A model generated the notes under the pieces. It made no database searches. It was given only the letters and a program-made list of their open reading frames with translations, and was not told the DNA's origin. The translations under genes were made by a program, and so were the position numbers. Below, piece by piece: positions 8,445 through 28,652 of a stretch of DNA of 64,000 nt. Within the stretch, counting starts at the first letter, position 1; every line of letters starts with the position of its first letter. The stretch comes from an uncultured bacterium (GTDB taxonomy: Bacteria; Patescibacteriota; Minisyncoccia; UBA6257; 2-01-FULL-56-20), in assembly GCA_963719425.1 (NCBI GenBank), contig OY970382.1, positions 522,880 to 586,879 on the forward strand, in the 5' to 3' direction.

Positions 8445-8594
8445 TGTTTTTCACTCCCCCATTTCCCTCATAATTTGGTTCCAACTATATCCCGAGGGGC
8501 TACGGAAGTTTTGAAAAAATAATGGGCGCGTAGCGAGTGATCGTTGCCGATCTCCTGCATGCGCCCATTGTGCGATGCCCTCCCGTCGTAGCAG

Positions 8595-8861
8595 TCAGGC
8601 CGCGGGAAGGTCGTTGATCAAGAGCTCGTCCGTGAGAGACGAAGCGATACCCTTTCGGGCCTTAATTTCGGCTTTGAGATAATCGATTCGCGCTGCATCC
8701 TCGGGGCAGGATTCCATTCTTTGCGCCTCGTCCTCGACTATGCGAAGGTTTTCTTGGAGATCCGTGATTTCACCTTGAACTTGCTTCAACGTCTCCGTAA
8801 CCCTCAAACGCCGTTGTGCAACTGCCCGCGCCCGAAAATATTTTCCAATATTGATTATCAT
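8595..8861 (-). CDS. Hypothetical coiled-coil protein (88 aa)
   Basis: ORF with charged heptad-like composition. Confidence 0.35.
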   Translation of the reverse strand: MIINIGKYFRARAVAQRRLRVTETLKQVQGEITDLQENLRIVEDEAQRMESCPEDAARIDYLKAEIKARKGIASSLTDELLINDLPAA

Positions 8862-9063: not shown

Positions 9064-9450
9064 TTATTGGATGGTCTGCCACGAAACGACGCTTGGCTGG
9101 TCAGTAGTGGTATTTATGGAAACGATGACACTCATCTTCCTTGTATGCCCCGAAACTGTCGCCACGGATAGGATCGTTGCAAGCCCGGCTGCCTGGGTAA
9201 CACTAACCACTGCCGTTGAACTCCCCACCGCTACCTGATAACTGCTTGTGGCGAAAGCGGGATTGCGGTCAAGCCAAAGCAGCGCGTCTTCCACCCCCGA
9301 TGTCGCTACCGCCTCTGCCTGCGCCGACGCCCGATAACCATAGCCGGTATCAACAAGCGAGTTGGCAAAAAACGCAAGGGTAAGACTGACAAGGATAACT
9401 ATCACGCCGATCAAAAGCATGAATGTCAAAAACATCTGGCCACGATTCAT
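9064..9450 (-). CDS. Pilin-like protein (prepilin N-terminal helix)
   Basis: Start moved to the internal MNRGQMFLTFMLLIGVIVIL, which is prepilin-type hydrophobic. The rest is T/S-rich and beta-rich. Confidence 0.5.
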   Translation of the reverse strand: MNRGQMFLTFMLLIGVIVILVSLTLAFFANSLVDTGYGYRASAQAEAVATSGVEDALLWLDRNPAFATSSYQVAVGSSTAVVSVTQAAGLATILSVATVSGHTRKMSVIVSINTTTDQPSVVSWQTIQ

Positions 9451-9529
9451 CTCATTGATTATACCATTCGGCCGGACCAGATCGCAGGGCGCCGCAGGCC
9501 CGGGCCGCAAGGCCGCGTCGAAATCGGAC

Positions 9530-10045
9530 TCAATAACTCACGGTCCCGGACGAAGCAATGGAAATAGTGGAGGAAAGCGACGCCGTGCCCAGCGAGTAGA
9601 GCCTAACGCTCGTTGCAACCGAAGCGGCGCCGGTGATCTGTGAAAACGTGATGTCGATCGCTGCGCCGGAAGCGAGCGTCGCGGTGGCATAGGCGACGGA
9701 CGACGGCAGGCGGTAATACCCCGCAATCGCCGACGTAGCGTAGGTAGAGGAGGCAAAGAGGGCGTAGAACGGCGTGGTCGTTGTCGTATTCGCAAGATGC
9801 ACGCCCCACGAAACGCCCTGCTCCTGCGCCATTGAATCGCTTTGCGCTTCGCGGAGCAATGCCACAATATTTTCCGTGGCGCCGTTCAAATCCGCCTCGT
9901 TGCGGCCTCCAAATAAATTGGCGGTGCGGAGCAGAACAATGAAAGCGACGAGGAGCGCAACCGCGGCGATAATTTCTATGAGCGTAAATCCCGTGCGGCG
10001 GGCGTTGGCATCGGCGTCGGCGAGCACTTCGCGGAGAGTTTTCAT
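9530..10045 (-). CDS. Type IV pilin / pseudopilin
   Basis: Canonical prepilin cleavage motif RRTGFTLIEIIAAVALLV (G|FTLIE). Confidence 0.65.
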   Translation of the reverse strand: MKTLREVLADADANARRTGFTLIEIIAAVALLVAFIVLLRTANLFGGRNEADLNGATENIVALLREAQSDSMAQEQGVSWGVHLANTTTTTPFYALFASSTYATSAIAGYYRLPSSVAYATATLASGAAIDITFSQITGAASVATSVRLYSLGTASLSSTISIASSGTVSY

Positions 10046-18971: not shown

Positions 18972-19283
18972 TCCGGCGTAGCTCAATGGTAGAGCGGCTC
19001 CCTGTCAAAGAAGGCAGCGCGCACTGGAAACGGTGCGATGAACATCTCGGGATAACGGTGAAGGCTAACCCGCAAGGCATGCGAACACCGTGGGAACCCC
19101 AGCCGTAAATGTGCGTTGCGCGCAGTTACGGCTGGGGACTCCGTAGAGACTAGATACCGAGACGCCTAATGTCCACTTTTCGGTTTTCGTGGGCGACGGC
19201 GATGATATAGTCCACGCCTTTTGGAAACATTGGGATTACGTGTAAGGAGATGGTTCCAGGTTCGAGTCCTGGCGCCGGAGCCA
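18972..19283 (+). tRNA. Intron-containing tRNA, most likely tRNA-Asn(GUU); group I intron in the anticodon loop
   Basis: 5' exon TCCGGCG-TA-GCTC-AATGGTA-GAGC-G-GCTCC-CTGT. 3' exon TAA-GGAGA-TGGTT-CCAGG-TTCGAGT-CCTGG-CGCCGGA-G-CCA. Perfect acceptor pairing. A U|...G| splice junction with an IGS GGCAG pairing to CUGU favours a loop of CUGUUAA. Splicing after U33 would instead give UGU (Thr). Confidence 0.6.
19006..19242 (+). ncRNA. Group I intron (~237 nt, no ORF) inside the tRNA anticodon loop
   Basis: Conserved core elements seen directly: R-like GUAGAGACUAGAUA (19150-19165) and S-like GAUGAUAUAGUCC (19201-19213) forming P7. Terminal G before the 3' exon. Candidate P1/IGS GGCAG near the 5' end. 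Several stable hairpins. Confidence 0.6.
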
Positions 19284-20769
19284 GTAGTTGGATTGAATGG
19301 GTTTTATTAAAATTTTCACGCGCGGAGCGAAGCTCCGCGTATGTTGTAGTGGGGATAAACTCGACACGGCGGTTTTTAAGAAAGAGGTTCGAGCCGAAAA
19401 TTTTCTGCAGGGATACCTTCTTCAAACTTAGGTCGTCATTGGTCACCGCTTCGGTGAGTAATGACGCGTCTTTTACCCATTCCCGCATAGGTTCGAGCCA
19501 AGCACAAACGTCCCGTCCCAAACGGGCAATCTGCTCCTCTAGAGTCTTCTTCTCTGACATAAGGACACAACGACGCTCAAGATAGGCGTCGCGCTCAATA
19601 TCTTGGGCGATATATATGTCGGTTAAGCGTTCCAACTGGCGGTCTATGTCCTTAACCTGCTCGCGCAGGGTTTGGATCGCGCGGGAGGCAACGCTTCCTG
19701 CTTTCTGTTCATCCTCTTTCATCCTCTGCTCATAGTATTCGACAAAAATCGGCGGCATGACGTATTGGGACAAGAGCGTGGAAAGATCGGCGGCGAGAGT
19801 TTCTTCGCGGACGTAGGGTTGTAAACATCGAACCGCCGACTTTTTGGTACAGCGATAATAGACGTAGCGGTGGACGTTTCCATTCTTTTGTTTTTTAATC
19901 CGCTCCTCGGCAGTGATCGCCATATGGCACTCGCCGCACGTGAGCAAGCCGCACAACGCTTGCGGGTCCTTCGTCGCAGTCTGCGGGTGGCCGCGCTTCA
20001 CGATAATTTTCTGCACCTTATCCCAAAGCCGCTTCTCAATGATCGGCGTATGTTTGCCTTCAAGCAGTTCTCCCTTGTAGACGAAATGGCCGTAGTAGAA
20101 CGGATTGGTGAGAATGAACTTCACGCGGTCTTCGTGCATCTCGTTGCCGTACAGACTTTTTACGCCGTTCTCGAACAGGAACTTGCCGATGTCTTGAATA
20201 CGGGAATTGCCCTTCGCATACAACTCGAAGGCCGCCCGTATGACGGGGGCCTTCTTCTTGTCCACGACAATCAACCTCGTGCGCGGATTGTTGAGATAGC
20301 CAACAGGAGCTGTACCAGGAAACTCGCCGCGCTTCGCTTTCTGCCGCAATCCCCGCGCCGTATTGGAACTCAGATCGCGGATATACTGGTTCGCCATTCC
20401 GAATTCGACGGACATCAAAAGTACGTTGTCGGCGGGATAGTAGCTTCGATCGTAGGCCTGAATGTGTGCTATCGTCCCACTTTGCAAGAGCCACTGGATT
20501 TGTGCCGCGTCCACTGGATTACGAGCTAAGCGGTCGATTTTCCAACAGATAATACCTTGGGCTTCGCCCGCGTTTATACGGGACATCATCTCATTAAATA
20601 TGGGACGGCCAGGAATTTTAGCCGTTTGTCGTTCCTCGAACTCCGCGACGATATTCAATCCTTCCTTCTTGGCAAGCTTATGCAAGACGGCAATCTGATC
20701 TTCAATCGAATGGACTTGCCTGTCCTTATCGTCGGTTGATTTGCGAGCATAGAGAAAATAGGTGGTCAT
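19150..20769 (-). CDS. Large serine recombinase (resolvase catalytic domain + recombinase domain + zinc ribbon); C-terminal ~90 codons overlap the IR and the tRNA/intron, so the true end is uncertain
   Basis: N-terminal YARKSTDDKDRQVHSIEDQ (catalytic Ser region) and the zinc ribbon CGLLTCGECH ... YYRCTKK. The reading frame continues through the tRNA 3' exon to a TAG inside intron element R. Confidence 0.75.
   Translation of the reverse strand: MTTYFLYARKSTDDKDRQVHSIEDQIAVLHKLAKKEGLNIVAEFEERQTAKIPGRPIFNEMMSRINAGEAQGIICWKIDRLARNPVDAAQIQWLLQSGTIAHIQAYDRSYYPADNVLLMSVEFGMANQYIRDLSSNTARGLRQKAKRGEFPGTAPVGYLNNPRTRLIVVDKKKAPVIRAAFELYAKGNSRIQDIGKFLFENGVKSLYGNEMHEDRVKFILTNPFYYGHFVYKGELLEGKHTPIIEKRLWDKVQKIIVKRGHPQTATKDPQALCGLLTCGECHMAITAEERIKKQKNGNVHRYVYYRCTKKSAVRCLQPYVREETLAADLSTLLSQYVMPPIFVEYYEQRMKEDEQKAGSVASRAIQTLREQVKDIDRQLERLTDIYIAQDIERDAYLERRCVLMSEKKTLEEQIARLGRDVCAWLEPMREWVKDASLLTEAVTNDDLSLKKVSLQKIFGSNLFLKNRRVEFIPTTTYAELRSARENFNKTHSIQLLAPAPGLEPGTISLHVIPMFPKGVDYIIAVAHENRKVDIRRLGI
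19280..19417. repeat. Inverted repeat IR-L (138 bp), begins at the tRNA CCA end and covers the last ~45 codons of the recombinase
   Basis: Reverse complement equals 22972..23109 with one mismatch (checked base by base). Confidence 0.85.
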
Positions 20770-21037
20770 AGGCTTTGTTCCTTTATAACAAGATAGAATA
20801 ATAAAATCAAGAGCAATACCTATTTTCAGGCTTAATTACTGGATAATTCACCCATTTCTAGGAATAAGATTATATTGGTGAAAAGGAACACGACGATTAA
20901 TAACACCTATAAATACCGTGTTTACTCATCAATCTCAATGCTAACCACTAGCATTTACTGTACGGGGCTTGCAAGTAATCGCTAACTATGCTAGGGTCAT
21001 AAGTGCCGAGAGCCATCGGCCTTAATCAATTCAAACT

Positions 21038-21454
21038 ATGCCAAAACAACACGACATACTAAAGAAACTTTTTACGGATGATTCTGAGGTCAATCCTGAA
21101 GAACTCTTTAAGCTATTATCCCCTTTTGTCAGAATAAATAAAAAGAGTAAGGAGGTGGTTTTCTTAGACGAGGCTCATAAACAATCTGTAAAAAATAAGA
21201 TCGTCCTTTTCTTATTAGCCAAGAAGGTACTCTTTTTATTAGGTGAAGCTGATACCGATCACGTTCAACCTAAGATTATTATTAAAGAATCTGGGATGCC
21301 AAGAGGGACCGTGCTACCGACATTGAAATCTCTTCGCGATAGTAAAACTGGCTCTTTCGTAAGCACTGAAGACGGTTCTTACTATATCTCCAGTTATCAG
21401 ATCGCCAAGATAAAAGAAAAAAACATTTTTAAGAACCATGAAAAAGACAAATAA
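21038..21454 (+). CDS. Hypothetical protein (AT-rich segment)
   Basis: ORF in a compositionally distinct low-GC block. Confidence 0.4.
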   Translation: MPKQHDILKKLFTDDSEVNPEELFKLLSPFVRINKKSKEVVFLDEAHKQSVKNKIVLFLLAKKVLFLLGEADTDHVQPKIIIKESGMPRGTVLPTLKSLRDSKTGSFVSTEDGSYYISSYQIAKIKEKNIFKNHEKDK

Positions 21455-21785
21455 AGAAATCATTGATCAGATAAGAGTTCTACTGAATGAGCTAGAGGGA
21501 TCGAAGCCCAGAGAACTGAACGCCCAGACTCATCATGCTAAGCAAACGATGAAGATCGGAAGGATTCCGACGGGCTGTATAGGTGCTATCCAGACATTAG
21601 TCGATGAGGGATTCTTAGATGAACTCCGAACTGTCCAGCAGGTTGTCGTAAAACTCAGGGAAGAAGGACAACCCTACAGCAGAGCATTAGTCTCTATGAA
21701 CTTATTGAATTTAGTGAAGCCTCCTCGGAAATTACTCCGACGCGTTAAAGATCAAGATCAGTGGCAATACATACTTAGAAAATAA
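21438..21785 (+). CDS. Hypothetical protein (AT-rich segment)
   Basis: ORF overlapping the previous stop by 17 nt, suggesting an operon. Confidence 0.4.
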   Translation: MKKTNKEIIDQIRVLLNELEGSKPRELNAQTHHAKQTMKIGRIPTGCIGAIQTLVDEGFLDELRTVQQVVVKLREEGQPYSRALVSMNLLNLVKPPRKLLRRVKDQDQWQYILRK

Positions 21786-21787
21786 AC

Positions 21788-22183
21788 ATGGCCAATCAAC
21801 TTAAAGACATACTAGACCGACTGACTAGATTAGAGGAGGTGGTGTTTGGTAACAAAGAGAAACCCGATAGTAAATTAAAGATACCAAATAAGAAAGGCAG
21901 ACTAGATTTCTCTCTTAACGAGAGAGCCTTTCTAAAAAAATACTTCTTTAAGTTTAATGGTCAACAAACATTCGCTTTAATTTGCGCTGCCTTATCGAAG
22001 GGAAAAACGGACACTCCAATCAATCTCTCGGGTATAAAGAAGACTTGGAAAAATTGCCAAGGAATCATTAAGTATCCATACAGTTCTATCTACTCTACCA
22101 GAGCGAAAGAGAACAATTGGGTTGTTCCAGGAAATAAGGCTACCTATTCGATTCGGCCTTCGTGGATAGAAATATTTAATTAA
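21788..22183 (+). CDS. Hypothetical protein (AT-rich segment)
   Basis: ORF tightly packed with its neighbours. Confidence 0.4.
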   Translation: MANQLKDILDRLTRLEEVVFGNKEKPDSKLKIPNKKGRLDFSLNERAFLKKYFFKFNGQQTFALICAALSKGKTDTPINLSGIKKTWKNCQGIIKYPYSSIYSTRAKENNWVVPGNKATYSIRPSWIEIFN

Positions 22184-22187
22184 TCCG

Positions 22188-22964
22188 ATGACAGAGGAAG
22201 AAGCTATCAAAAATGTATTGATCAAGGTCTTCCCTGCCAAGCACATTACCTCCGCGCTCGAACACTTCTCAGAGGCAGAGACAAAGTACCAACAGGAGGA
22301 TTGGGAAAAATCCTTATTGAGAAGTGGCAAGTTTATCGAATCAACATTAAAAGCCTTGTACGTTTATGCTGGTAAAACATTGCCGCCTAGTCGGCAATTT
22401 AAGGTCAGCACGGTCATTCAACAATTAGGACAACTTAGTAATAGCTACGACGACACTATCAGGCTAACCATCCCTCGTAGCTGCTCTTTCATTTACGATA
22501 TAGTTAGCAATCGAGGTGCGCGGCACGATTCAGACGATTTTGATCCAAATAAGATGGACGCTAGTGTTTCGATACCAACAATTTCATGGATATTGTCTGA
22601 AATGATCCGTTTCGCGAGTCAAACATCGCCGAGTAACGATGACGTTACTTCATTCACTGAGAGTCTGATGGAGAAAAAACATCCCCTATTTGAAACGATA
22701 GATGGCAGAATCTATGTTAACCACAAAGGATTGACTCCAAAGGATTTAGCCCTACTACTCTTATACGCGTACTATCCTAAAAGAATATCGCGAAAGGAAC
22801 TAACAGATTCTATAGAGAGGCATGGCAACTTTACCAGAAATGCAATTGCTATCGCGCTAACGAATATCAAAGACTTGGTTGATGATGACGGGACTGGTAA
22901 TTGGAAACTTCGTGAAATCGGCAGAGCTAAAGCCGCGCGGATATTAAATACATTACACTCATAG
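22188..22964 (+). CDS. Hypothetical protein (AT-rich segment)
   Basis: 258 aa ORF with no motif recognised. Confidence 0.4.
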   Translation: MTEEEAIKNVLIKVFPAKHITSALEHFSEAETKYQQEDWEKSLLRSGKFIESTLKALYVYAGKTLPPSRQFKVSTVIQQLGQLSNSYDDTIRLTIPRSCSFIYDIVSNRGARHDSDDFDPNKMDASVSIPTISWILSEMIRFASQTSPSNDDVTSFTESLMEKKHPLFETIDGRIYVNHKGLTPKDLALLLLYAYYPKRISRKELTDSIERHGNFTRNAIAIALTNIKDLVDDDGTGNWKLREIGRAKAARILNTLHS

Positions 22965-22971
22965 TTTATAA

Positions 22972-23109
22972 GGTATCCCTCCAGAAAATTTTCGGCTCGA
23001 ACCTCTTTCTTAAAAACCGCCGTGTCGAGTTTATCCCCACTACAACATACGCGGAGCTTCGCTCCGCGCGTGAAAATTTTAATAAAACCCATTCAATCCA
23101 ACTACTGGC
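22972..23109. repeat. Inverted repeat IR-R (partner of 19280..19417); on the + strand it encodes ...KVSLQKIFGSNLFLKNRRVEFIPTTTYAELRSARENFNKTHSIQLL then ASSYESTRTYFARNLS*
   Basis: Direct comparison. It would provide an alternative, stop-terminated 3' end for the recombinase if the segment inverted. Confidence 0.85.
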
Positions 23110-23149
23110 TAGTTCGTATGAGTCCACTCGTACCTATTTTGCCCGAAAT

Positions 23150-23520
23150 TTGAGCTGATTTACCCCATCATTCACCCCATCATTCGGGTATACTCGGAAT
23201 GATGGGGTAGGAAACCGAAATGCCCCCGTATATGCTCGCTTTTCTGTCGCACCGCCTCACAAACCTCAGACCCTACTTCACTCCGGTTTACCCCTACGTT
23301 CACCCCTACGTTCGGGATATGCCGGAACGTAGGGGTATGAAGTCTCAATCTCCTTACAAACGTTGGGATTTTTGATCCTCGCCGTTCAAAACTGGAAGTC
23401 CTACTTCACTCCGTTTCTGCCCTACCCAAGTGGTGTGCTCAGCCCCTCAGCCGCTCGCTGCTGCTCGGGCTTCGGGGCTTCGCGTATGGCGCGCCCAAAT
23501 TCCTCCCCCACAAAATAGCT
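23150..23520. repeat. Left arm of a ~400 bp imperfect inverted-repeat pair; contains two doubled-arm hairpin modules (23166-23215 and 23290-23340), three ctacttcactccg motifs and a 74-bp block (23436-23509) perfectly mirrored at 26465-26540
   Basis: Reverse-complement comparison with 26430..26800. Confidence 0.75.
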
Positions 23521-23571
23521 CACGGCCGCATGGCCGAGAAAATTAATAAAGATGTAAAATGTAGATGAATC

Positions 23572-25956
23572 ATGTCCAAACTAACAAAACAACAAAGACG
23601 TTCGAGAAGGAAGAGGCGGAAAGATAAGAAACGCAGAGAGAAACGCCTAAGCAGCAAAAAGACTAGGCAAAAAGCCGAGCCGTGGGTTCCTGTAAAAATG
23701 AAAATGTTTGAATTCCCCAATCCATTTCCCTCAAATGTCCCACAAGAGAAACGTTTGGAGATAATCAGATCGATAGGGGCAAACGCTAAAAGGGAGTTTG
23801 ATTTGAAATATCCAAAGATCGAAGAGTGGTTTAAAAAGTATGATCCCTTATATCTATTATCTTTTTGTCTTACTTATTTCGCATCAACACCAGAAGGAAT
23901 AGACCCAGAGGCTACTGGAGAAATGGACTTCTTTCCGTTCTATATAGAAATTATGCAAGCATTTGCGTTATATCAGGAGAGGAATTACTCTCCTAACCCC
24001 CTTTTCGGCGATGCTTCTGTTTTGAATAAAGAAATCAAAGAAATTGGAGAGCTTATGAGCGTAAGATTGATAGACATTCCTAAGGATCTAAAGACTGATG
24101 AAGAAATCCTTGCCTATAAATTAAGGACTGAAATGATGATGCAAACAACAGCTGTGAGGAATTGGGCATATTTTCATCAAATGAAAAGAGTCTCCTTGGC
24201 GTTGGCTAGTAAGATTGATAGTGATTTTAAAAAAAGCTTTGGCATCGGATCTTCTGATTTGATGAAGCTATTATTTAAACTTTCTGAAGAAAGAAATGAC
24301 TTATTAAACGACCATCTGGATAGAGTAAGAAGTTTTATAAATAAGCCTGATTATAAAGAAATAATGGAGGCGTACAACCAAGCATTCCCATCTAACAAAC
24401 GAATTGAGGCGAATGAAATGGAAGAACTCTGGAACAAAGCTGGCAAGAATAAGAAACATTTGACCGAGATGCTAATTTGCCACGCTGATTTAAAGTTGGA
24501 GAATATTTACTCTTTCACGGTAGACCATGCACTATCTCTCCTCGATGGAAATATAACCAAAGAAACTCTTAAAAATATCCTAAAAAAACTTTCTTACAAT
24601 TTTGGGGGGCTGAAAGATTTTAATAAAGAGCACATTATTCTTAGCAATCCAGTGCACAGTAAACCATTCATTAAGATTGATGAGGAAAAGTTCTATTCCG
24701 CAATTTGGGTGATATTGCCGCACCTTACATTAGACCTACTAGAAGATTTTGTCTGGGAAGATGAGGATCTTCGAGAAAAATATTCTGATATAAGATCGAA
24801 ATATCTGGAAGATGAAATAGTCAAGCTTTTTAAGAGTAATTTTCCGAATGGTACAGTTAGCAGGGGCAGTCTTTGGAAAAGTGGAATTCTTGGAAGGGAG
24901 TATGAAAACGATCTCACTCTTACTATTGATACATTCGCCATTGTAGTTGAAGCGAAATCTCAGAAATTAAGCGATCCGGCCAAACGGGGCGCACCCAAAA
25001 GATTGTTCGAAACCCTTAAAGAGTTAATAGAAGAACCATCTGAACAGGCTTTGAGATTTATAGATTATTTACAAAAGAATAAAAAGGTTCATGCATTTAA
25101 AAATAAACACGGAGAAACCAATACCATCGACAGCACCAAAATTAAGTATTACGTACCTCTCGGAGTAACTTTCTCTCATTTGGGTATGATTGGAAGTAAC
25201 TTAAAGAAACTGATTGAAGCCAAAGTCACAGACAAGCCTCTCGAAAAACTGGCTCCATCCATAAATTTTACCGACCTTGAAGGGGTCTTTGAGTTACTCC
25301 CGCTAGAAGCGGAGAAGATTCACTACCTAGCGAGAAGAAGAGAATTTGAAGCTCACGTTGAATACGATGGCGATGAGTTAGATCTTCTGGCCCTCTATCT
25401 CGAAAACGGATTCAATATCGGAGTTGCTGAGTACGACAAGAAGCATGTCTTCTTTCTTGGCATTAAATCAAAAGAATTAGATCCATATTTCATTGGAATA
25501 AACGAAGGAAGGAAGATCGCTAAACCAGAATTTGCTATGACTCAGTGGTGGAAAGATCTACTGACTACTATTTCTATGAGGAAATTTGATGGTTGGATAG
25601 AAACTTCCTTTGTTTTACTTAACAGCACCAAAGAAGATCAGGAGAAGTTTGAGGCGGGATTAAAAGAACTAATGGGACGCATTAAATCTGGGAAGGTTGA
25701 GAAGCCTCATAATTGGGTAGCTTTTATAACGGGGCCGGAAAGACGGCGATATGCAATTATTGGATATCCATATACCACTTCAGACAAAGAACTACGCGAT
25801 ACAATAATGTCTGAGGCAATTGACGGATCCGAAAAAGAGCACAAGGACATTCGAGGGATTGTGGTAATAGGAATAGACATGAATCATGCCAACTATCCTT
25901 ATAGTGTCTTCGCGCGAAGATTATCCACAAATCTTTTTGATACACTCACGCTTTAA
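23572..25956 (+). CDS. Large hypothetical protein (794 aa), extremely basic N-terminus (KQQRRSRRKRRKDKKRREKR...), possible PD-(D/E)xK-like motif (TIDTFAIVVEAKS)
   Basis: Single long ORF at ~35-40% GC. The nuclease-like motif is a weak visual call only. Confidence 0.45.
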   Translation: MSKLTKQQRRSRRKRRKDKKRREKRLSSKKTRQKAEPWVPVKMKMFEFPNPFPSNVPQEKRLEIIRSIGANAKREFDLKYPKIEEWFKKYDPLYLLSFCLTYFASTPEGIDPEATGEMDFFPFYIEIMQAFALYQERNYSPNPLFGDASVLNKEIKEIGELMSVRLIDIPKDLKTDEEILAYKLRTEMMMQTTAVRNWAYFHQMKRVSLALASKIDSDFKKSFGIGSSDLMKLLFKLSEERNDLLNDHLDRVRSFINKPDYKEIMEAYNQAFPSNKRIEANEMEELWNKAGKNKKHLTEMLICHADLKLENIYSFTVDHALSLLDGNITKETLKNILKKLSYNFGGLKDFNKEHIILSNPVHSKPFIKIDEEKFYSAIWVILPHLTLDLLEDFVWEDEDLREKYSDIRSKYLEDEIVKLFKSNFPNGTVSRGSLWKSGILGREYENDLTLTIDTFAIVVEAKSQKLSDPAKRGAPKRLFETLKELIEEPSEQALRFIDYLQKNKKVHAFKNKHGETNTIDSTKIKYYVPLGVTFSHLGMIGSNLKKLIEAKVTDKPLEKLAPSINFTDLEGVFELLPLEAEKIHYLARRREFEAHVEYDGDELDLLALYLENGFNIGVAEYDKKHVFFLGIKSKELDPYFIGINEGRKIAKPEFAMTQWWKDLLTTISMRKFDGWIETSFVLLNSTKEDQEKFEAGLKELMGRIKSGKVEKPHNWVAFITGPERRRYAIIGYPYTTSDKELRDTIMSEAIDGSEKEHKDIRGIVVIGIDMNHANYPYSVFARRLSTNLFDTLTL

Positions 25957-25968
25957 TAACAAGAGGGC

Positions 25969-26346
25969 TTAGTTTTTGAATTTTTCCAAAATCAGCCCAA
26001 CCAGCCAGTAGCAGAATCGGTAGAGCACGAAAGTGAGCACGTCAAAATAGGGATTGAAAATGATTCCCCATCCTGCTATCCAGATGATGATTGCCAGAAT
26101 CCCAAAAAAGAATATGTGGTAGAGCAGACTGCCGAGCATACCCGTTTCTCCTAGCAGGGCTTTTACCGAAGCGAGAACGAGAAGGAAGAAAAGGCCTCCG
26201 ACTATCCACGGCAGATAAGGCACTGAAGCACGCAGAGTTGCGGTGGCGACAGTTTGGAATATGAAGGTGCCCATTTCCGTTGAGGAGGCCAGAATCCTTT
26301 GGCCTAAATCCGGCGGTAGCTTGATAACTGGCAGGGTCGAGGTCAT
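25969..26346 (-). CDS. Small integral membrane protein (125 aa, 4 TM)
   Basis: Hydrophobic ORF convergent with the 794 aa gene. Confidence 0.4.
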   Translation of the reverse strand: MTSTLPVIKLPPDLGQRILASSTEMGTFIFQTVATATLRASVPYLPWIVGGLFFLLVLASVKALLGETGMLGSLLYHIFFFGILAIIIWIAGWGIIFNPYFDVLTFVLYRFCYWLVGLILEKFKN

Positions 26347-26429
26347 TTCAAGCCAAACATAAGCCAGTAGGACGATAAGGTCAAATCAAGCGTAGTTTCA
26401 TAGAAAACCACCTATTCAGAAAGATGTTG

Positions 26430-26800
26430 AGCTACCACCCTCGGGCGCGCCAAAAGGAGGGGTTGGGGGAGGAATTTGGGCGCGCCATACGCGAAGCCCC
26501 GAAGCCCGAGCAGCAGCGAGCGGCTGAGGGGCTGAGCACAGACCCGTTTAGGGGTATTGTCGGGGGTCAGGGTTTTCGAGAAAAGCGAGGTCTTGTAAGG
26601 GCAGAAGGCCGTCAGGGTAGTCAATCGTGATTGACGGGGTGATTGACTAGGTAAACCGGAGTGAAGTAGGACTTTGGATTTTGTCCGGCGAAACTCAAAA
26701 AGCCCAGCGTTTGCGGGGCGATCTGGACTTGCTACCCCTTCATTCCGAGCATACCCGAATGAAGGGGTGAATGAAGGGGTAAAACAATCAGGAATTTGCC
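26430..26800. repeat. Right arm of the ~400 bp imperfect inverted-repeat pair; contains one doubled-arm hairpin module (26737-26790) in inverted orientation
   Basis: See the left arm. Hairpin loop CGAGCATACCC is the reverse complement of left-arm loop GGGTATACTCG with one change. Confidence 0.75.
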
Positions 26801-27014
26801 ATAAAATACGCTTGGATCTGCTCATACAAGCGAGCAGTACTGGACTTTGAGAGTACAAATCGAATAAATCGCTAAGTTTCATGCGCTTTCTGTGGTCATG
26901 TCACTATTAGACCACACGGATCATTAAAAAATTCTAAAATCCGAGCCTTGCGAAAACCCGTTTCAGGAACATGTCAGGTAGAATAATTGACGTCTGATCC
27001 GACATAAGCGTACC

Positions 27015-27533: not shown

Positions 27534-28652
27534 CTATAGACCAACCGAGTTAGCCCCATACTCTGCTTGTGCTTGCGTGAATTTGTCGTACTCCAACTGT
27601 GCAATGAGACTGCCGCGTGAAAAAGCGGAATACGACATGTACTGTTGCGCCGCTTTAGCCGCTTCGTCATTCCAGTTGGCTCCAGAATTATCTGCGCCAT
27701 AAACTGCTTGAGATTGTGTAAATTGATCGTGCACCAATTGAGCAACCAGCCCATCGTGAGAAAATGCCGTGTAGCTCAAATAAGATTGTGCCGCCTTAAT
27801 CGCCTGTGCGTTCCAGTCGGCGCCAACGTTATCCGCACCGTAAACCGCGTCAGACTGTGAGAATTGATCGTGCACCAATTGAGCAACCAACCCATCATGA
27901 GAAAATGCTGTGTAGTTTAAGTAAGACTGCGCCGCCCTAACCGCGTTCTGTTGGCTAACCGTTTCGTTTGATGCGGCTGATGTATTTTGACTGTTTGTTT
28001 GTTCAACTTGGGTCGGCGGCGGACTAGAAACGGTAATTATTCCGCTGCAAACCTGATTCATCGATTGGCTTCCCGAAACGATCTTCACGCTTGCACCCTT
28101 CGTACCCGTGGTCGAATACGTGAGCGACGTTGATTTTCCAGTACCGGATAGTCCGTCTGTTCCAGACCAAGAATACGAGTAACTACCGGTTCCTCCGGAG
28201 GCCTGAACTACCCATATCCCCGTCTGACCAGTGGTGAGGGTACTTTGTGCAGGAGAACATGTCGCGGAAATCGCCGGTGTCGGTGTCGGCTGTGGAGCAG
28301 TTGTTTGAGTCGTTTGATTTGGTGCAGCCGCATCGGTAACCGTTTTATTAGGCGTTGGCGTTTGCTGCGGAACGTTGGTGACTACAGGAGCCGAGGTGGT
28401 TGCAGTAGTTGACGCCGAAGGAACTGTTGCCGATTCGTTCGCGACTTGCTGGTTGGAATTTTCTACTGGGGAATTGCTTGTGGGGGTAGATGGGCTCGTG
28501 ACACCGATCAAAATAAAGAAAACTATTATTGCGCCGCCGAAAAGGAATCCGGCTTCCCTGCGGGATCGGAGCTTCAAAGACGAGGGCTTGCTAAGGCCCA
28601 CGATAAAACCAGCGATTGAAACGAGTAAGAGAAGGAAGAATAGACTGGTCAT
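27534..28652 (-). CDS. Membrane-anchored S/T-rich protein with three tandem Ltp-family-like repeats (host cell surface-exposed lipoprotein / superinfection-exclusion type)
   Basis: Three copies of AAQSYL-YTAFS-DGLVAQLVHDQF-QS-AVYGAD, matching the Ltp repeat pattern (SYL.YS.FSR.GL..QL.FD.F...A.YAV). N-terminal TM helix. Confidence 0.5.
   Translation of the reverse strand: MTSLFFLLLLVSIAGFIVGLSKPSSLKLRSRREAGFLFGGAIIVFFILIGVTSPSTPTSNSPVENSNQQVANESATVPSASTTATTSAPVVTNVPQQTPTPNKTVTDAAAPNQTTQTTAPQPTPTPAISATCSPAQSTLTTGQTGIWVVQASGGTGSYSYSWSGTDGLSGTGKSTSLTYSTTGTKGASVKIVSGSQSMNQVCSGIITVSSPPPTQVEQTNSQNTSAASNETVSQQNAVRAAQSYLNYTAFSHDGLVAQLVHDQFSQSDAVYGADNVGADWNAQAIKAAQSYLSYTAFSHDGLVAQLVHDQFTQSQAVYGADNSGANWNDEAAKAAQQYMSYSAFSRGSLIAQLEYDKFTQAQAEYGANSVGL
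27560..27960. repeat. Three ~123-bp tandem DNA repeats encoding the Ltp-like repeats
   Basis: Direct nucleotide-level repetition visible in the sequence. Confidence 0.7.

Follow-up and report, generated by a model that had tools for sequence, protein, structure and literature searches.

Doubled-arm hairpin modules are part of the attachment-site arms of a tRNA-targeting serine recombinase element in Patescibacteria

What is the role of three hairpins, each with one arm written twice, that lie within a few kilobases of each other in a Patescibacteria (CPR) genome? The preliminary description of the window, by which we mean the whole 64-kb stretch of DNA that was analysed, reported three such modules with a conserved loop and covarying stems, and suggested that they were selected for structure rather than sequence, as in a hairpin that is bound by a protein or used in recombination. 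All three quoted strings are present in the window, and a mechanical scan for the pattern X-(0-3 nt)-X-(3-20 nt loop)-revcomp(X) recovered the duplicated stem arm in all three copies. With an arm length of 12 the scan returned exactly modules 1, 2 and 3, each consisting of a 12-nt arm present twice, a loop of 11-13 nt and the inverted arm (3/3 modules), and with an arm length of 10 it gave 15 overlapping matches, every one from the three modules, compared to 0 in 10/10 first-order Markov simulations. In the rest of the 64-kb window the same scan found nothing beyond chance-grade 8-mers. When folded as single strands the modules reach -14 to -16 kcal/mol (z-scores -4.1 to -5.4), and they have two alternative folds with nearly equal energies. 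The conserved loop proved to be true of the three local copies only: a search with GGGWATRCYCG matched copies 1 and 3 but the loop of copy 2 is out of register, and family-wide the loop is the least conserved and most variable part of the module, with part of it tracking the arm type.

The suspected association with a recombinase was borne out, with the modules located inside the attachment-site arms of a 7.6 kb element (approximately 19279-26835) that a large serine recombinase (LSR) has integrated beside a tRNA gene (Table 1). The order is tRNA, attL, LSR segment, intact inverted attP, arm b, cargo, arm b' and attR. Arm b contains modules 1 and 2 as part of the internal attP, and arm b' contains module 3 as part of attR. 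Arms b and b' form an imperfect inverted repeat of ~390 nt (23111-23510 vs 26464-26832), of which the inner 77 nt are 100% identical; this repeat and the ~128-nt units described below went unnoticed in the preliminary description. The mirror-image orientation of copy 3, which that description saw correctly, follows from the inverted relationship between the two arms. The layout tRNA / a - LSR - a' / b - cargo - b' is shared by the window and two long-read MAG contigs, where the inverted repeats are 100% identical over 124-159 nt (a/a') and 386-397 nt (b/b'); we found no published description of this layout.

Table 1. Features of the serine recombinase element and its surroundings in the window
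Feature	Position	Strand	Details
tRNA gene	18972-19283	+	anticodon loop interrupted by ~240-nt insertion; 3' end provides the B half-site for integration
LSR ORF	19150-20769	-	native part 19279-20769; last 42 codons (19153-19278) antisense of tRNA gene
attL core AGCCA	19279-19283		from comparison of junctions X, rc(Y) and Z; AGC common to attP and attR
Arm a (P' arm)	19284-19419		last 136 nt of native LSR coding sequence; inverted repeat with 22970-23105, 99.3%
GC palindrome in arm a			CGCGGAGCTTCGCTCCGCG; 37-55 nt from core
Four small low-GC ORFs inside LSR segment	21038-22964	+	last one: weak HEPN match
Arm a'	22970-23105		inverted copy of LSR 3' end
Core TGGCT of intact internal attP, inverted	23106-23110		rc(Y) is P arm + core + P' arm
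P half-site	23111-23158	+	encodes native LSR C-terminal tail SSYESTRTYFARNLS and stop TGA (23156-23158)
Module 1	23161-23209	+	arms TACCCCATCATT / CACCCCATCATT, loop CGGGTATACTCGG, inverted arm AATGATGGGGTA; heads unit 1 (23158-23291)
Module 2	23289-23337	+	arms CCCCTACGTT; heads unit 2 (23286-23419)
Inner core of arm b	23434-23510		77-nt perfect inverted repeat with 26464-26540
ext1, conserved extension with small hairpin	23511-23536	+	CGGCCGCATGGCCG; 5' side of cargo operon; common to locus B (right) and L067 (left)
Cargo	23572-26346		794-aa ORF (+, 23572-25956), 125-aa ORF (-, 25969-26346); 34-40% GC
ext2, conserved extension	26431-26463	-	CCCCTCCTTTTGGCGCGCCC; 3' side of cargo; common to B (left), L002, L067 (right), A (left)
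Arm b' (P arm of attR)	26464-26832	-	77-nt core, degenerate module, unit 3, P half-site
Degenerate fourth module	26618-26649	-	arms GTCAATC; missed in the preliminary description
Module 3	26733-26781	-	arms CCCCTTCATT; in unit 3 (26651-26784)
attR core AGC, right element end	26833-26835		from junction comparison

The crossover was located by comparison of the three junctions X, rc(Y) and Z. In five elements these share a 3-nt core (ACA or AGC) and have the hybrid arms of attL, attP and attR, with the same right arm in X and rc(Y) and the same left arm in Z and rc(Y). The distance between the core and the TYCGA motif of the tRNA T-loop is 18-20 nt in the tRNA half-site and 22-24 nt in the P arm (5/5 elements). 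An outward motif shift of 4-5 nt distinguishes attP from attB half-sites of serine integrases, and each of the five elements displays it. The core lies ~50 nt away from the hairpin; the hairpin is not the site of crossover. With regard to the target, the insertion in the anticodon loop (18991-19234) gives a weak full-length match to group I introns (22.5 bits, E 0.023), and after its removal ARAGORN calls a tRNA with an assigned identity that varies with the cut position; in our reading of the sequence it is probably Asp GUC-like. The a/a' repeat abuts a tRNA 3' end in 46/83 LSR loci, representing at least 12 kinds of tRNA. Searches with flanking proteins and contig look-ups for an empty attB brought up the same insertion (L107) and, apart from that, just distant relatives without synteny.

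The LSR contains the Pfam domains Resolvase (PF00239), Recombinase (PF07508) and Zn_ribbon_recom (PF13408), its nearest named families in NCBIfam are CcrB, CcrC and XisF (all below their cut-offs), and its PDB relatives are SprA/YokA and the A118 integrase. Homology to relatives ends at the core, and the native LSR frame runs on across the attP core, so that integration replaces the C-terminal tail of the recombinase. In 27 loci the P half-site shows codon-periodic conservation, encoding L-Y-x-x-A-R-T-Y/F-F with a stop at +40 to +48. The 45 nt ahead of the modules are thus codon-periodic, unlike the units that follow, and module 1 begins 3 nt past the native LSR stop codon, while in other arm types a GC hairpin comes right after the stop, at +46 to +51.

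Each module is the first part of a unit of ~128 nt, in which the doubled-arm palindrome is followed by a C-rich spacer with a T-run (34% C and 15.5% G on the LSR-sense strand) and a near-invariant tail, CCKACTTCACTCCG. Further copies, as anticipated in the preliminary description, were found in many genomes: 33 distinct units were gathered from ~25 Patescibacteria loci, with the spacing of tandem units fixed at 128 nt. In a search of 185,579 species genomes there were one or two strict matches per genome, every one of these in LSR-element context, and 13/13 true genome matches were in Patescibacteria, from several CPR classes. The tail motif has 32 matches in 915 kb vs ~3.5 expected, none of which is outside the units. 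A dispersed selfish repeat (REP/MITE-like), or DNA-uptake words sitting here by chance, would account for a short palindromic sequence with a 12-nt word present three times, but the copy number, the absence of further copies in the window and the confinement of the tail to the units largely refute this already and make it extremely improbable; on the same grounds REP/BIME and MITE-like repeats were ruled out as candidates. A protein-coding repeat was rejected as well, since the 128-nt period is not a multiple of 3 and the frame which is open in b' (window, A and B) stops in module 2. The module starts 47-98 nt (mostly 50-60 nt) from the end of the a' repeat in 14/42 loci with a readable arm, and approximately two thirds of the family members are without a doubled-arm module at that position. 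Within the arms, TCAYKC is conserved in every loop-proximal half and the distal part varies freely, arm 1 and arm 2 show systematic differences kept across loci (e.g. TCACGC vs TCACTC), and the sequences make up two arm types plus hybrids. It is well supported that each module opens a ~128-nt unit and that these units build the long P arm of the sites of a tRNA-targeting LSR element, and equally that this element is common in Patescibacteria.

The proposed covariation of the stems was upheld in the 33 distinct units, with both sides changed in 9/12 pairs and 0/500 shuffles reaching the observed score; arm 1 and arm 3 are paired in 89.6%, and arm 2 and arm 3 in 90.9% of cells (33 units, 12 pairs, 396 cells). 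The idea that structure is selected and not sequence proved oversimplified, with TCAYKC and the unit tail being kept in sequence. The covariation proceeds by Watson-Crick changes, strictly by identity of the repeats, with G·U in 4-6/396 cells only and A·C as the commoner mismatch (14-19 cells). With its strict Watson-Crick pairing and G·U nearly absent, the module covariation looks DNA-like, as if a single DNA word were present in triplicate, and unlike that of an RNA stem. A structured RNA family was rejected as a candidate on the basis of these few G·U cells, the absence of Rfam matches in the module region at the gathering threshold or E<=1, and the single helix, with RNAalifold finding no structure in the units besides the one hairpin.

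An RNA 3'-end or insulator role nevertheless remains the main rival, although we consider it rather unlikely. The native LSR transcript would then end in the module hairpin, with this serving as terminator, stabiliser or Rho-loading region, and the inverted duplication of the arm would in addition make it an insulator facing inward, which shields the cargo against outside transcription on either side. This agrees with the module start next to the native LSR stop codon and the GC hairpins right after the stop in other arm types, with the C-rich, G-poor spacers and their T-run, and with both arm copies facing inward, so that entering transcripts meet the same sense; insulation would also be useful for cargo that across the family is often restriction-modification, toxin-like or otherwise defence-like. 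Conversely, neither orientation has a U-tract behind the stem, G·U is nearly absent, the more frequent A·C pairs would be wobbles on the opposite strand only (with few independent events), RNAalifold and Rfam give the results described above, and the duplicated arm, the invariant tail, the 128-nt period and the matching palindrome in the ORF of the other arm are left unexplained. An intrinsic terminator was specifically rejected: the consensus scan does not call the modules, and arm 3 is followed by TAGC/TAGG. The terminator scan did call the P half-site hairpin with its T-run at 23116-23143, and a site at 26656-26677.

Palindromes are not restricted to the modules, as both arms have one at ~45-60 nt from the crossover throughout the family. 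On the a (P') side it consists of a 7-8-bp GC stem within the LSR coding sequence, which is found 34-63 nt from the core in 29/34 loci and has compensatory non-synonymous changes inside the LSR ORF. The b side averages a palindrome score of 7.7 vs 5.4 in shuffles. About a third of the elements carry the doubled-arm module on the P arm and the others a GC palindrome like that of the P' side, and some hairpin is present at the same P-side position in nearly all arm types. The a-side and b-side palindromes of one element differ in sequence.

The modules could also have no function of their own, and have arisen by slippage as a tandem and palindromic repeat of a non-coding arm, with gene conversion among neighbouring arms and across the two inverted copies keeping them alike. 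The 100% identity of b and b' across ~390 nt in two genomes indicates that conversion does operate, most family members do without modules, and the covariation strictly follows repeat identity. We still think this quite improbable, given that the unit length, the tail and the module position are kept across ~40%-identical LSRs and several CPR classes, that nearly all arm types have some hairpin at the same position, and that the systematic differences between arm 1 and arm 2 persist across loci.

The cargo of the family includes restriction-modification, toxin-antitoxin and unknown genes; the cargo ORFs of the window had no Pfam, NCBIfam, PADLOC or PDB match, and the four small ORFs had no PADLOC or NCBIfam match. 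This variable cargo lies between conserved frames (arm + core + ext1/ext2) common to elements with unrelated LSRs, and its boundaries are at ext1 and ext2, ~300 nt from the modules. Variable cargo between such frames would agree with the hairpin itself being a recombination or nicking substrate, a folded single-stranded site either for attC-like exchange of cargo cassettes or for a hairpin-binding nuclease, Rep or relaxase in replication or transfer of the excised circle. The b' arm of the window is 94% identical to the arm of locus B, with the similarity beginning exactly at arm 1; the stem is conserved in its loop-proximal part and free in its distal part, as in sites read as hairpins; the two alternative folds are nearly equal in energy; and there is a Replic_Relax domain in one cargo and one LSR fusion, all of which can be seen as favouring such a substrate. 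We regard it as very doubtful, as no gene for a HUH protein, Rep, relaxase or tyrosine recombinase is shared by the elements, locus A as the smallest of them has just the LSR and three cargo genes, the cargo boundaries are off the modules, the LSR crossover maps elsewhere, and integron-type R/L boxes are not visible by inspection.

As a whole the best explanation, which we hold tentatively and rate a little short of probable, is that the modules, being P-arm units of the LSR element, act as DNA-level accessory palindromes, a function that is putative. Whether as duplex DNA with a protein bound to it or in the form of extruded hairpins, the palindromes would mark and shape the P-type arms, with the crossover itself outside the hairpin; in this way they could affect synapsis or directionality, or else shield the core. 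The words of the arm, arrayed as tail, arm 1, arm 2 and inverted arm 3, might operate in the manner of the multi-site arms of other recombination sites. LSRs carrying nearly the same arrays are only 40-46% identical to each other, and the half-sites next to the 94%-identical arms of the window and locus B are unrelated, which argues against co-evolved contacts with the LSR. Several points count against the DNA-level reading: canonical serine integrases are not known to require accessory sites or more than ~50 bp of attP, the a and b palindromes are unlike, about two thirds of the family lack the module, and the LSR is the one gene that all elements have in common. A signal of the Rho type or for an RNA 3' end would be equally compatible with a module right after the stop and a C-rich, G-poor spacer. 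Judged from its long conserved arms, the family may depart from the canonical serine integrases, for which minimal sites of about 40-50 bp without accessory DNA suffice. A much bolder proposal, and in its entirety an unlikely one, is that Patescibacteria carry an undescribed serine-recombinase cassette platform, the serine counterpart of the integron or FRT, in which the recombinase gene is complete only across attP, a second inverted attP has a spare recombinase 3' end, cargo lies between long inverted arms, and palindromes including the doubled-arm modules are obligatory structural cofactors licensing recombination, inversion or cassette exchange.

Serine integrases are prized in genome engineering for needing, as is generally assumed, only short sites and no cofactors. 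If functional, the long arms, the palindromes at about equal distances from the crossover on both arms, the frame across attP and the internal attP would represent another control of directionality or cargo exchange, in a family that would be among the first defined mobile-element types in CPR bacteria and that uses the universal T-loop to target tRNA genes. Should the palindromes be ordinary transcript ends, the interest lies in the element architecture alone. The combination of resolvase, recombinase and zinc-ribbon domains is shared with A118/LI, Bxb1, phiC31, SprA and CcrAB, and the sites resemble those of serine integrases in their 2-3-nt common core, quasi-symmetric half-sites and attP motif 4-5 nt further out than in attB. 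They differ from these in arms of 160-400 nt with palindromes and tandem units, in the intact second attP kept inverted inside the integrated element, in an LSR frame that crosses attP and has its C-terminal tail replaced on integration, and in a target at the 3' end of many different tRNA genes. Sites II and III of res (Tn3/gamma-delta) and site II of Sin also have 12-bp words beside the crossover in inverted or direct orientation with variable spacing, but are accessory sites of resolvases with a C-terminal helix-turn-helix that resolve direct repeats; the module arms have no convincing similarity by eye to the P, P' and B half-sites.

Among tyrosine recombinase systems, the FRT site of the yeast 2-micron plasmid (Flp) is similar in having three words of 12-13 bp, two direct at ~1 nt apart and one inverted across a spacer, the words lying in long inverted repeats to either side of an invertible segment. 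Here, however, the spacer is 11-13 nt instead of 8, the recombinase is of the serine type, the crossover is ~50 nt away and not in the spacer, and the words differ between modules of one element. An FRT-like tyrosine-recombinase site was rejected on spacer length (6-8 bp being expected) and crossover position, and no tyrosine recombinase was present among the element ORFs scanned. The attC sites of integrons are likewise imperfect palindromes flanking variable cargo by a recombinase, with pairing better kept than sequence; the family described here has no tyrosine IntI and no R''/L''-L'/R' boxes, its cargo boundaries are off the hairpin and its arrays have a fixed 128-nt period. An integron attC was therefore rejected, with RYYYAAC/GTTRRRY boxes absent by inspection, boundaries at ext1/ext2 and only a serine-type recombinase. 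In SCCmec-type composite cassette arrays, whose Ccr recombinases include the nearest named families to the LSR (CcrB and CcrC), LSR-driven modules, some without a recombinase, are likewise chained at a conserved gene 3' end, although here the internal junction is inverted, the ends are long inverted repeats and the target is a tRNA gene. Finally, in the integration-dependent immunity of mycobacteriophages attP is also inside an ORF and integration alters the C-terminus of the protein, but there this concerns a repressor gene and a tyrosine integrase, whereas here it is the serine recombinase itself that is altered, with a spare 3' end kept at the internal attP.

The three doubled-arm hairpin modules, in each of which an arm word occurs twice directly and once inverted (arm 3), are well supported as repeat units in the P arm of the attachment sites of a large serine recombinase (LSR). 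All three module strings quoted in the preliminary description are present in the window exactly as written, and a mechanical scan of the 64-kb window at word length 12 returned exactly these three sites, with only chance-grade 8-mers in the rest of the window. At word length 10 there were 15 overlapping matches, every one from modules 1-3, and ten sequences simulated from the window with a first-order Markov model gave none. The count of three copies was confirmed at word length 12, to which a degenerate fourth module has to be added (see the table below). A dispersed selfish repeat is essentially excluded, and uptake-sequence or REP readings were ruled out by the copy number. Each module forms the head of a unit of ~128 nt, consisting of the hairpin, a spacer bearing a T-run, and the tail CCKACTTCACTCCG; a protein-coding repeat was ruled out by the 128-nt period and the in-frame stop codons. 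The units and a perfectly complementary stretch of 77 nt together make up the ~390-nt imperfect inverted repeat b/b', which encloses a low-GC segment with ORFs of 794 and 125 aa. As arms b and b' are inverted, module 3 lies in the inverted arm copy and is indeed the mirror image that had been described. An independent assembly of public run ERR10755942 (L107) is 100% identical to the window across 4.6 kb, right junction included, and its contig begins exactly at an arm of module 3; the module therefore breaks short-k-mer assembly.

Coordinates of the features in the window and in related loci
Feature	Position	Strand or orientation	Remark
Target tRNA gene	18972-19283		Asp GUC-like by our reading
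LSR frame within tRNA gene	19150-19278 region	antisense to tRNA gene	42 codons
Element	about 19279-26835
Repeats a and a'	19284-19419 and 22970-23105	inverted	99.3% identical
Four small ORFs	21038-22964
Stop codon of LSR frame at Y	23156-23158		TGA
Units 1 and 2	23158-23419	tandem
Module 1	23161-23209	+
Module 2	23289-23337	+
77-nt stretch (inner arm end)	23434-23510 and 26464-26540	inverted	perfect complementarity
ext1	23511-23536	+	cargo-flanking extension
794-aa ORF	23572-25956		34-40% GC island
ext2	26431-26463	-	cargo-flanking extension
Degenerate fourth module	26618-26649
Unit 3	26651-26784	opposite to units 1 and 2
Module 3	26733-26781	-
Start of L107 contig	26757-26780		L107 1-24
Lipoprotein-repeat gene	27534-28652		flanking
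Direct repeat in this gene	27553-27803 and 27694-27944	direct	251 nt, 74% identity
5.8-kb cargo	L102 8682-14481; L103 7712-13511	opposite
Perfect palindrome in L018	8932-8973		42 nt; between a' (8585-8752) and DUF3800 gene (9157-9966)

A possible association with a recombinase had been raised earlier, and the modules do sit in the arms of the LSR attachment sites. Two long-read MAG contigs, A (L001+L011) and B (L013+L009), share the layout of the window (tRNA, a, LSR, a', b, cargo, b'); in both, the inverted repeats match at 100% identity, while tRNAs and cargo differ. Junctions were compared in the window, A, B and the related loci L018 and L039, namely X (tRNA to a), rc(Y) (where Y joins the start of b to a) and Z (b' to flank). 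In these five elements the three junctions have a common 3-nt core, ACA or AGC, on the right side of which X equals rc(Y), and on the left side of which rc(Y) equals Z. In the tRNA the TYCGA motif, which is the T-loop there, has a distance of 18-20 nt to the core, compared with 22-24 nt in the b arm, and attP and attB half-sites of serine integrases are told apart by a 4-5-nt outward shift of such a motif. Because of the junction identities and this shift, X is read as attL, Z as attR and Y as an intact inverted attP inside the element; a is then the P' arm and b the P arm. A search for an unoccupied tRNA site fixing the right end returned only the same insertion (L107) or distant relatives. 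A tRNA mimic was rejected, as likeness to the tRNA 3' half is limited to the first ~45 nt of the arm, i.e. the half-site plus coding tail. The anticodon loop of the target tRNA gene is split by a ~240-nt insert with a weak full-length group I intron match (22.5 bits, E 0.023), and ARAGORN misses the gene unless this insert is taken out. The gene flanking the element encodes a protein with three Ltp-type lipoprotein repeats, and contains an internal direct repeat.

The LSR frame has no stop codon ahead of the core: in the integrated state it reads into the tRNA gene, whereas at Y it goes on for 15 codons (SSYESTRTYFARNLS) to a stop codon, 3 nt past which module 1 begins. Conservation is codon-periodic over the initial ~45 nt of the b arm in 27 loci, with free third positions, a conserved tail peptide (L-Y-x-x-A-R-T-Y/F-F) and a stop codon at +40 to +48; hence the P arm encodes the native LSR C-terminus, which is replaced upon integration. 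Junction Y retains a spare copy of the last ~45 LSR codons plus the tail. The second inverted repeat, a/a', encloses the LSR gene and four small ORFs, and nearly all family members have an inverted copy of the LSR 3' end, of ~160 nt, upstream of the LSR gene. The core-proximal part of a/a' is nearly identical in every element, while distal a' often has an insertion of 8-10 nt at ~115 nt from the core, fixed in many loci; frequent core-proximal exchange between a and a' would be expected to leave such a pattern. By inversion, the LSR segment could regain a full-length gene and swap the 3' ends of that gene. The four small ORFs, an operon situated between the LSR gene and the internal attP, may have a toxin or defence function; the last of them has a sub-threshold HEPN match (E 0.006). 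Fusions to additional domains occur in some recombinases of the family (Replic_Relax in P0087, ParB-like and others in the 894-aa P0107), and L018 contains a perfect palindrome upstream of its recombinase.

Among 185,579 species genomes, the degenerate module pattern gave 13 true matches, all in Patescibacteria (Saccharibacteria, Paceibacterota and Parcubacteria), and two Chloroflexota matches were rejected as GC-rich chance matches. The hairpin and tail patterns had no match in viral contigs, and the arm sequence none in phage or plasmid collections. There are thousands of LSR homologues, the named ones among the closest matches being all CPR. Of 83 loci fetched via the LSR, 46 have an a/a' repeat of which one arm, located at the 3' end of the LSR gene, adjoins a tRNA gene, the targets comprising a dozen or more different kinds of tRNA gene; many short contigs end inside a, or ~120 nt past a', as repeats would lead one to expect. 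A subset of loci shows the b/b' pair (the window, A, B, L018, L039, L053, L054, L059, L067, L075 and L082), and no second b copy is present in at least 14 loci for which 4.5-8.5 kb of flank is available. Doubled-arm modules are present in 14/42 loci with a readable arm, where they begin 47-98 nt from the point at which the a' repeat ends, and the remaining readable loci have different GC-rich hairpins at that position. There was no simple link between arm type and LSR clade as co-evolution would give, since hairpin-type arms are found in at least six separate clades. We found no published description of the family in the literature searched.

The arms and cargo are modular. From module arm 1 inward, b' of the window is 94% identical to the arm of B, whereas LSR identity between the two elements is only about 40%, and the half-sites next to these arms are unrelated. 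Hairpin-type arms all end in ...GGCGCGCCCAAATTCCTCCCC, followed by ext1 on one side and ext2 on the other with the cargo in between, and this inner arm end is conserved in the window, A, B, L002 and L067. The extensions give the cargo slot a polarity, with ext1 in every case on the 5' side of the cargo operon. The cargo frame is opposite in the window and B because ext1 lies beside the LSR in the former and away from it in the latter. The 794-aa cargo protein had no match in Pfam, NCBIfam, PADLOC or PDB sequences; cargo in other loci includes type II and type I restriction-modification, a kinase with PP2C phosphatase, a Panacea-domain antitoxin, GIY-YIG, DUF2130 and transport genes. A 5.8-kb restriction-modification cargo (HaeII-type endonuclease, two C5 methylases, Vsr and a HATPase protein), flanked by perfect inverted repeats of at least 120 nt, has opposite orientations in L102 and L103, which are assemblies of different samples. 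L102 differs from L103 and L104 by this inversion, with a 100% identical recombinase protein (P0116), and in L102 and L103 the recombinase 3' end is joined directly to a P arm, with no tRNA. The inversion is only suggestive, as short reads do not allow an assembler to decide the orientation of a segment enclosed by perfect inverted repeats.

In an alignment of 33 distinct units, the covarying stems of the preliminary description were borne out, with 9/12 pairs altered on both sides and the observed covariation score matched by 0/500 shuffles. Its conserved loop was not: the loop is the least conserved module segment across the units, and already in the window the loop of copy 2 does not match the proposed consensus in register. 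Both direct arms are equally complementary to arm 3 (89.6% of cells for arm 1, 90.9% for arm 2; 33-49% in slid controls), and the opening bases of the loop show a tendency to pair with the beginning of arm 2. Two arm words predominate, ACCCC(W)(W)CRTTC and GGGTAGTCATTC, which can coexist 128 nt apart within one element, and one hybrid word was found; the loop-proximal half (TCAYKC) is conserved, and the distal half varies in concert between arms. The unit tail is almost invariant and confined to units. The modules fold as single strands at -14 to -16 kcal/mol (z-scores -4 to -5). A functionless slippage repeat kept uniform through gene conversion is improbable, and a folded-strand recombination or nicking site slightly more so. 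The main rival is an RNA 3'-end or insulator element, which would fit the position right after the LSR stop codon and the C-rich spacers (rich in C and poor in G on the LSR-sense strand), but it lacks a U-tract and G·U pairs and leaves the arm doubling unexplained, and we consider it possible but rather unlikely. G·U pairs are near-absent (4-6/396 cells) and A·C mismatches commoner (14-19 cells); the latter would be wobbles if the other strand is read, a lean to the strand antisense to the LSR that rests on two or three independent events. RNAalifold on the unit alignment gave no further helix beyond the hairpin, and there was no Rfam match in the region at gathering threshold or E<=1. Promoter-like and terminator-like counts in the region did not exceed those of shuffled sequence, and the modules were not called as either.

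Comparable palindromes occur on both arms. On the a arm, 29/34 loci have one 34-63 nt from the core, mostly with a 7-8-bp GC stem and 3-nt loop; this palindrome is internal to the LSR ORF, and its compensatory changes also change the encoded protein (e.g. GAG/CTC to GCG/CGC). On the b arm there is either a GC palindrome (about +46 to +67) or the doubled-arm module (about +50 to +97), and the module is thus one variant of a family-wide palindrome, of which presence and position, but not sequence, are conserved. We favour a role of the modules as DNA-level accessory elements in the recombination-site arms, because the palindromes are at similar distances from the crossover on both arms, one of them is inside coding sequence where a terminator is impossible, covariation is strictly Watson-Crick across the three copies, linear motifs are conserved with a fixed unit length, and copy number is low. 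Taken together, identity as P-arm repeat units and such an accessory function is a tentative reading, to which we give slightly less than an even chance.

Long structured arms, an internal inverted attP, a recombinase frame spanning attP and doubled-arm modules are, to our knowledge, unfamiliar from described serine integrases, and no description of these four features was found in the literature searched. In enzyme class and att-site logic the family is of a known type, and that it constitutes a distinct, structure-dependent cassette platform is unlikely.
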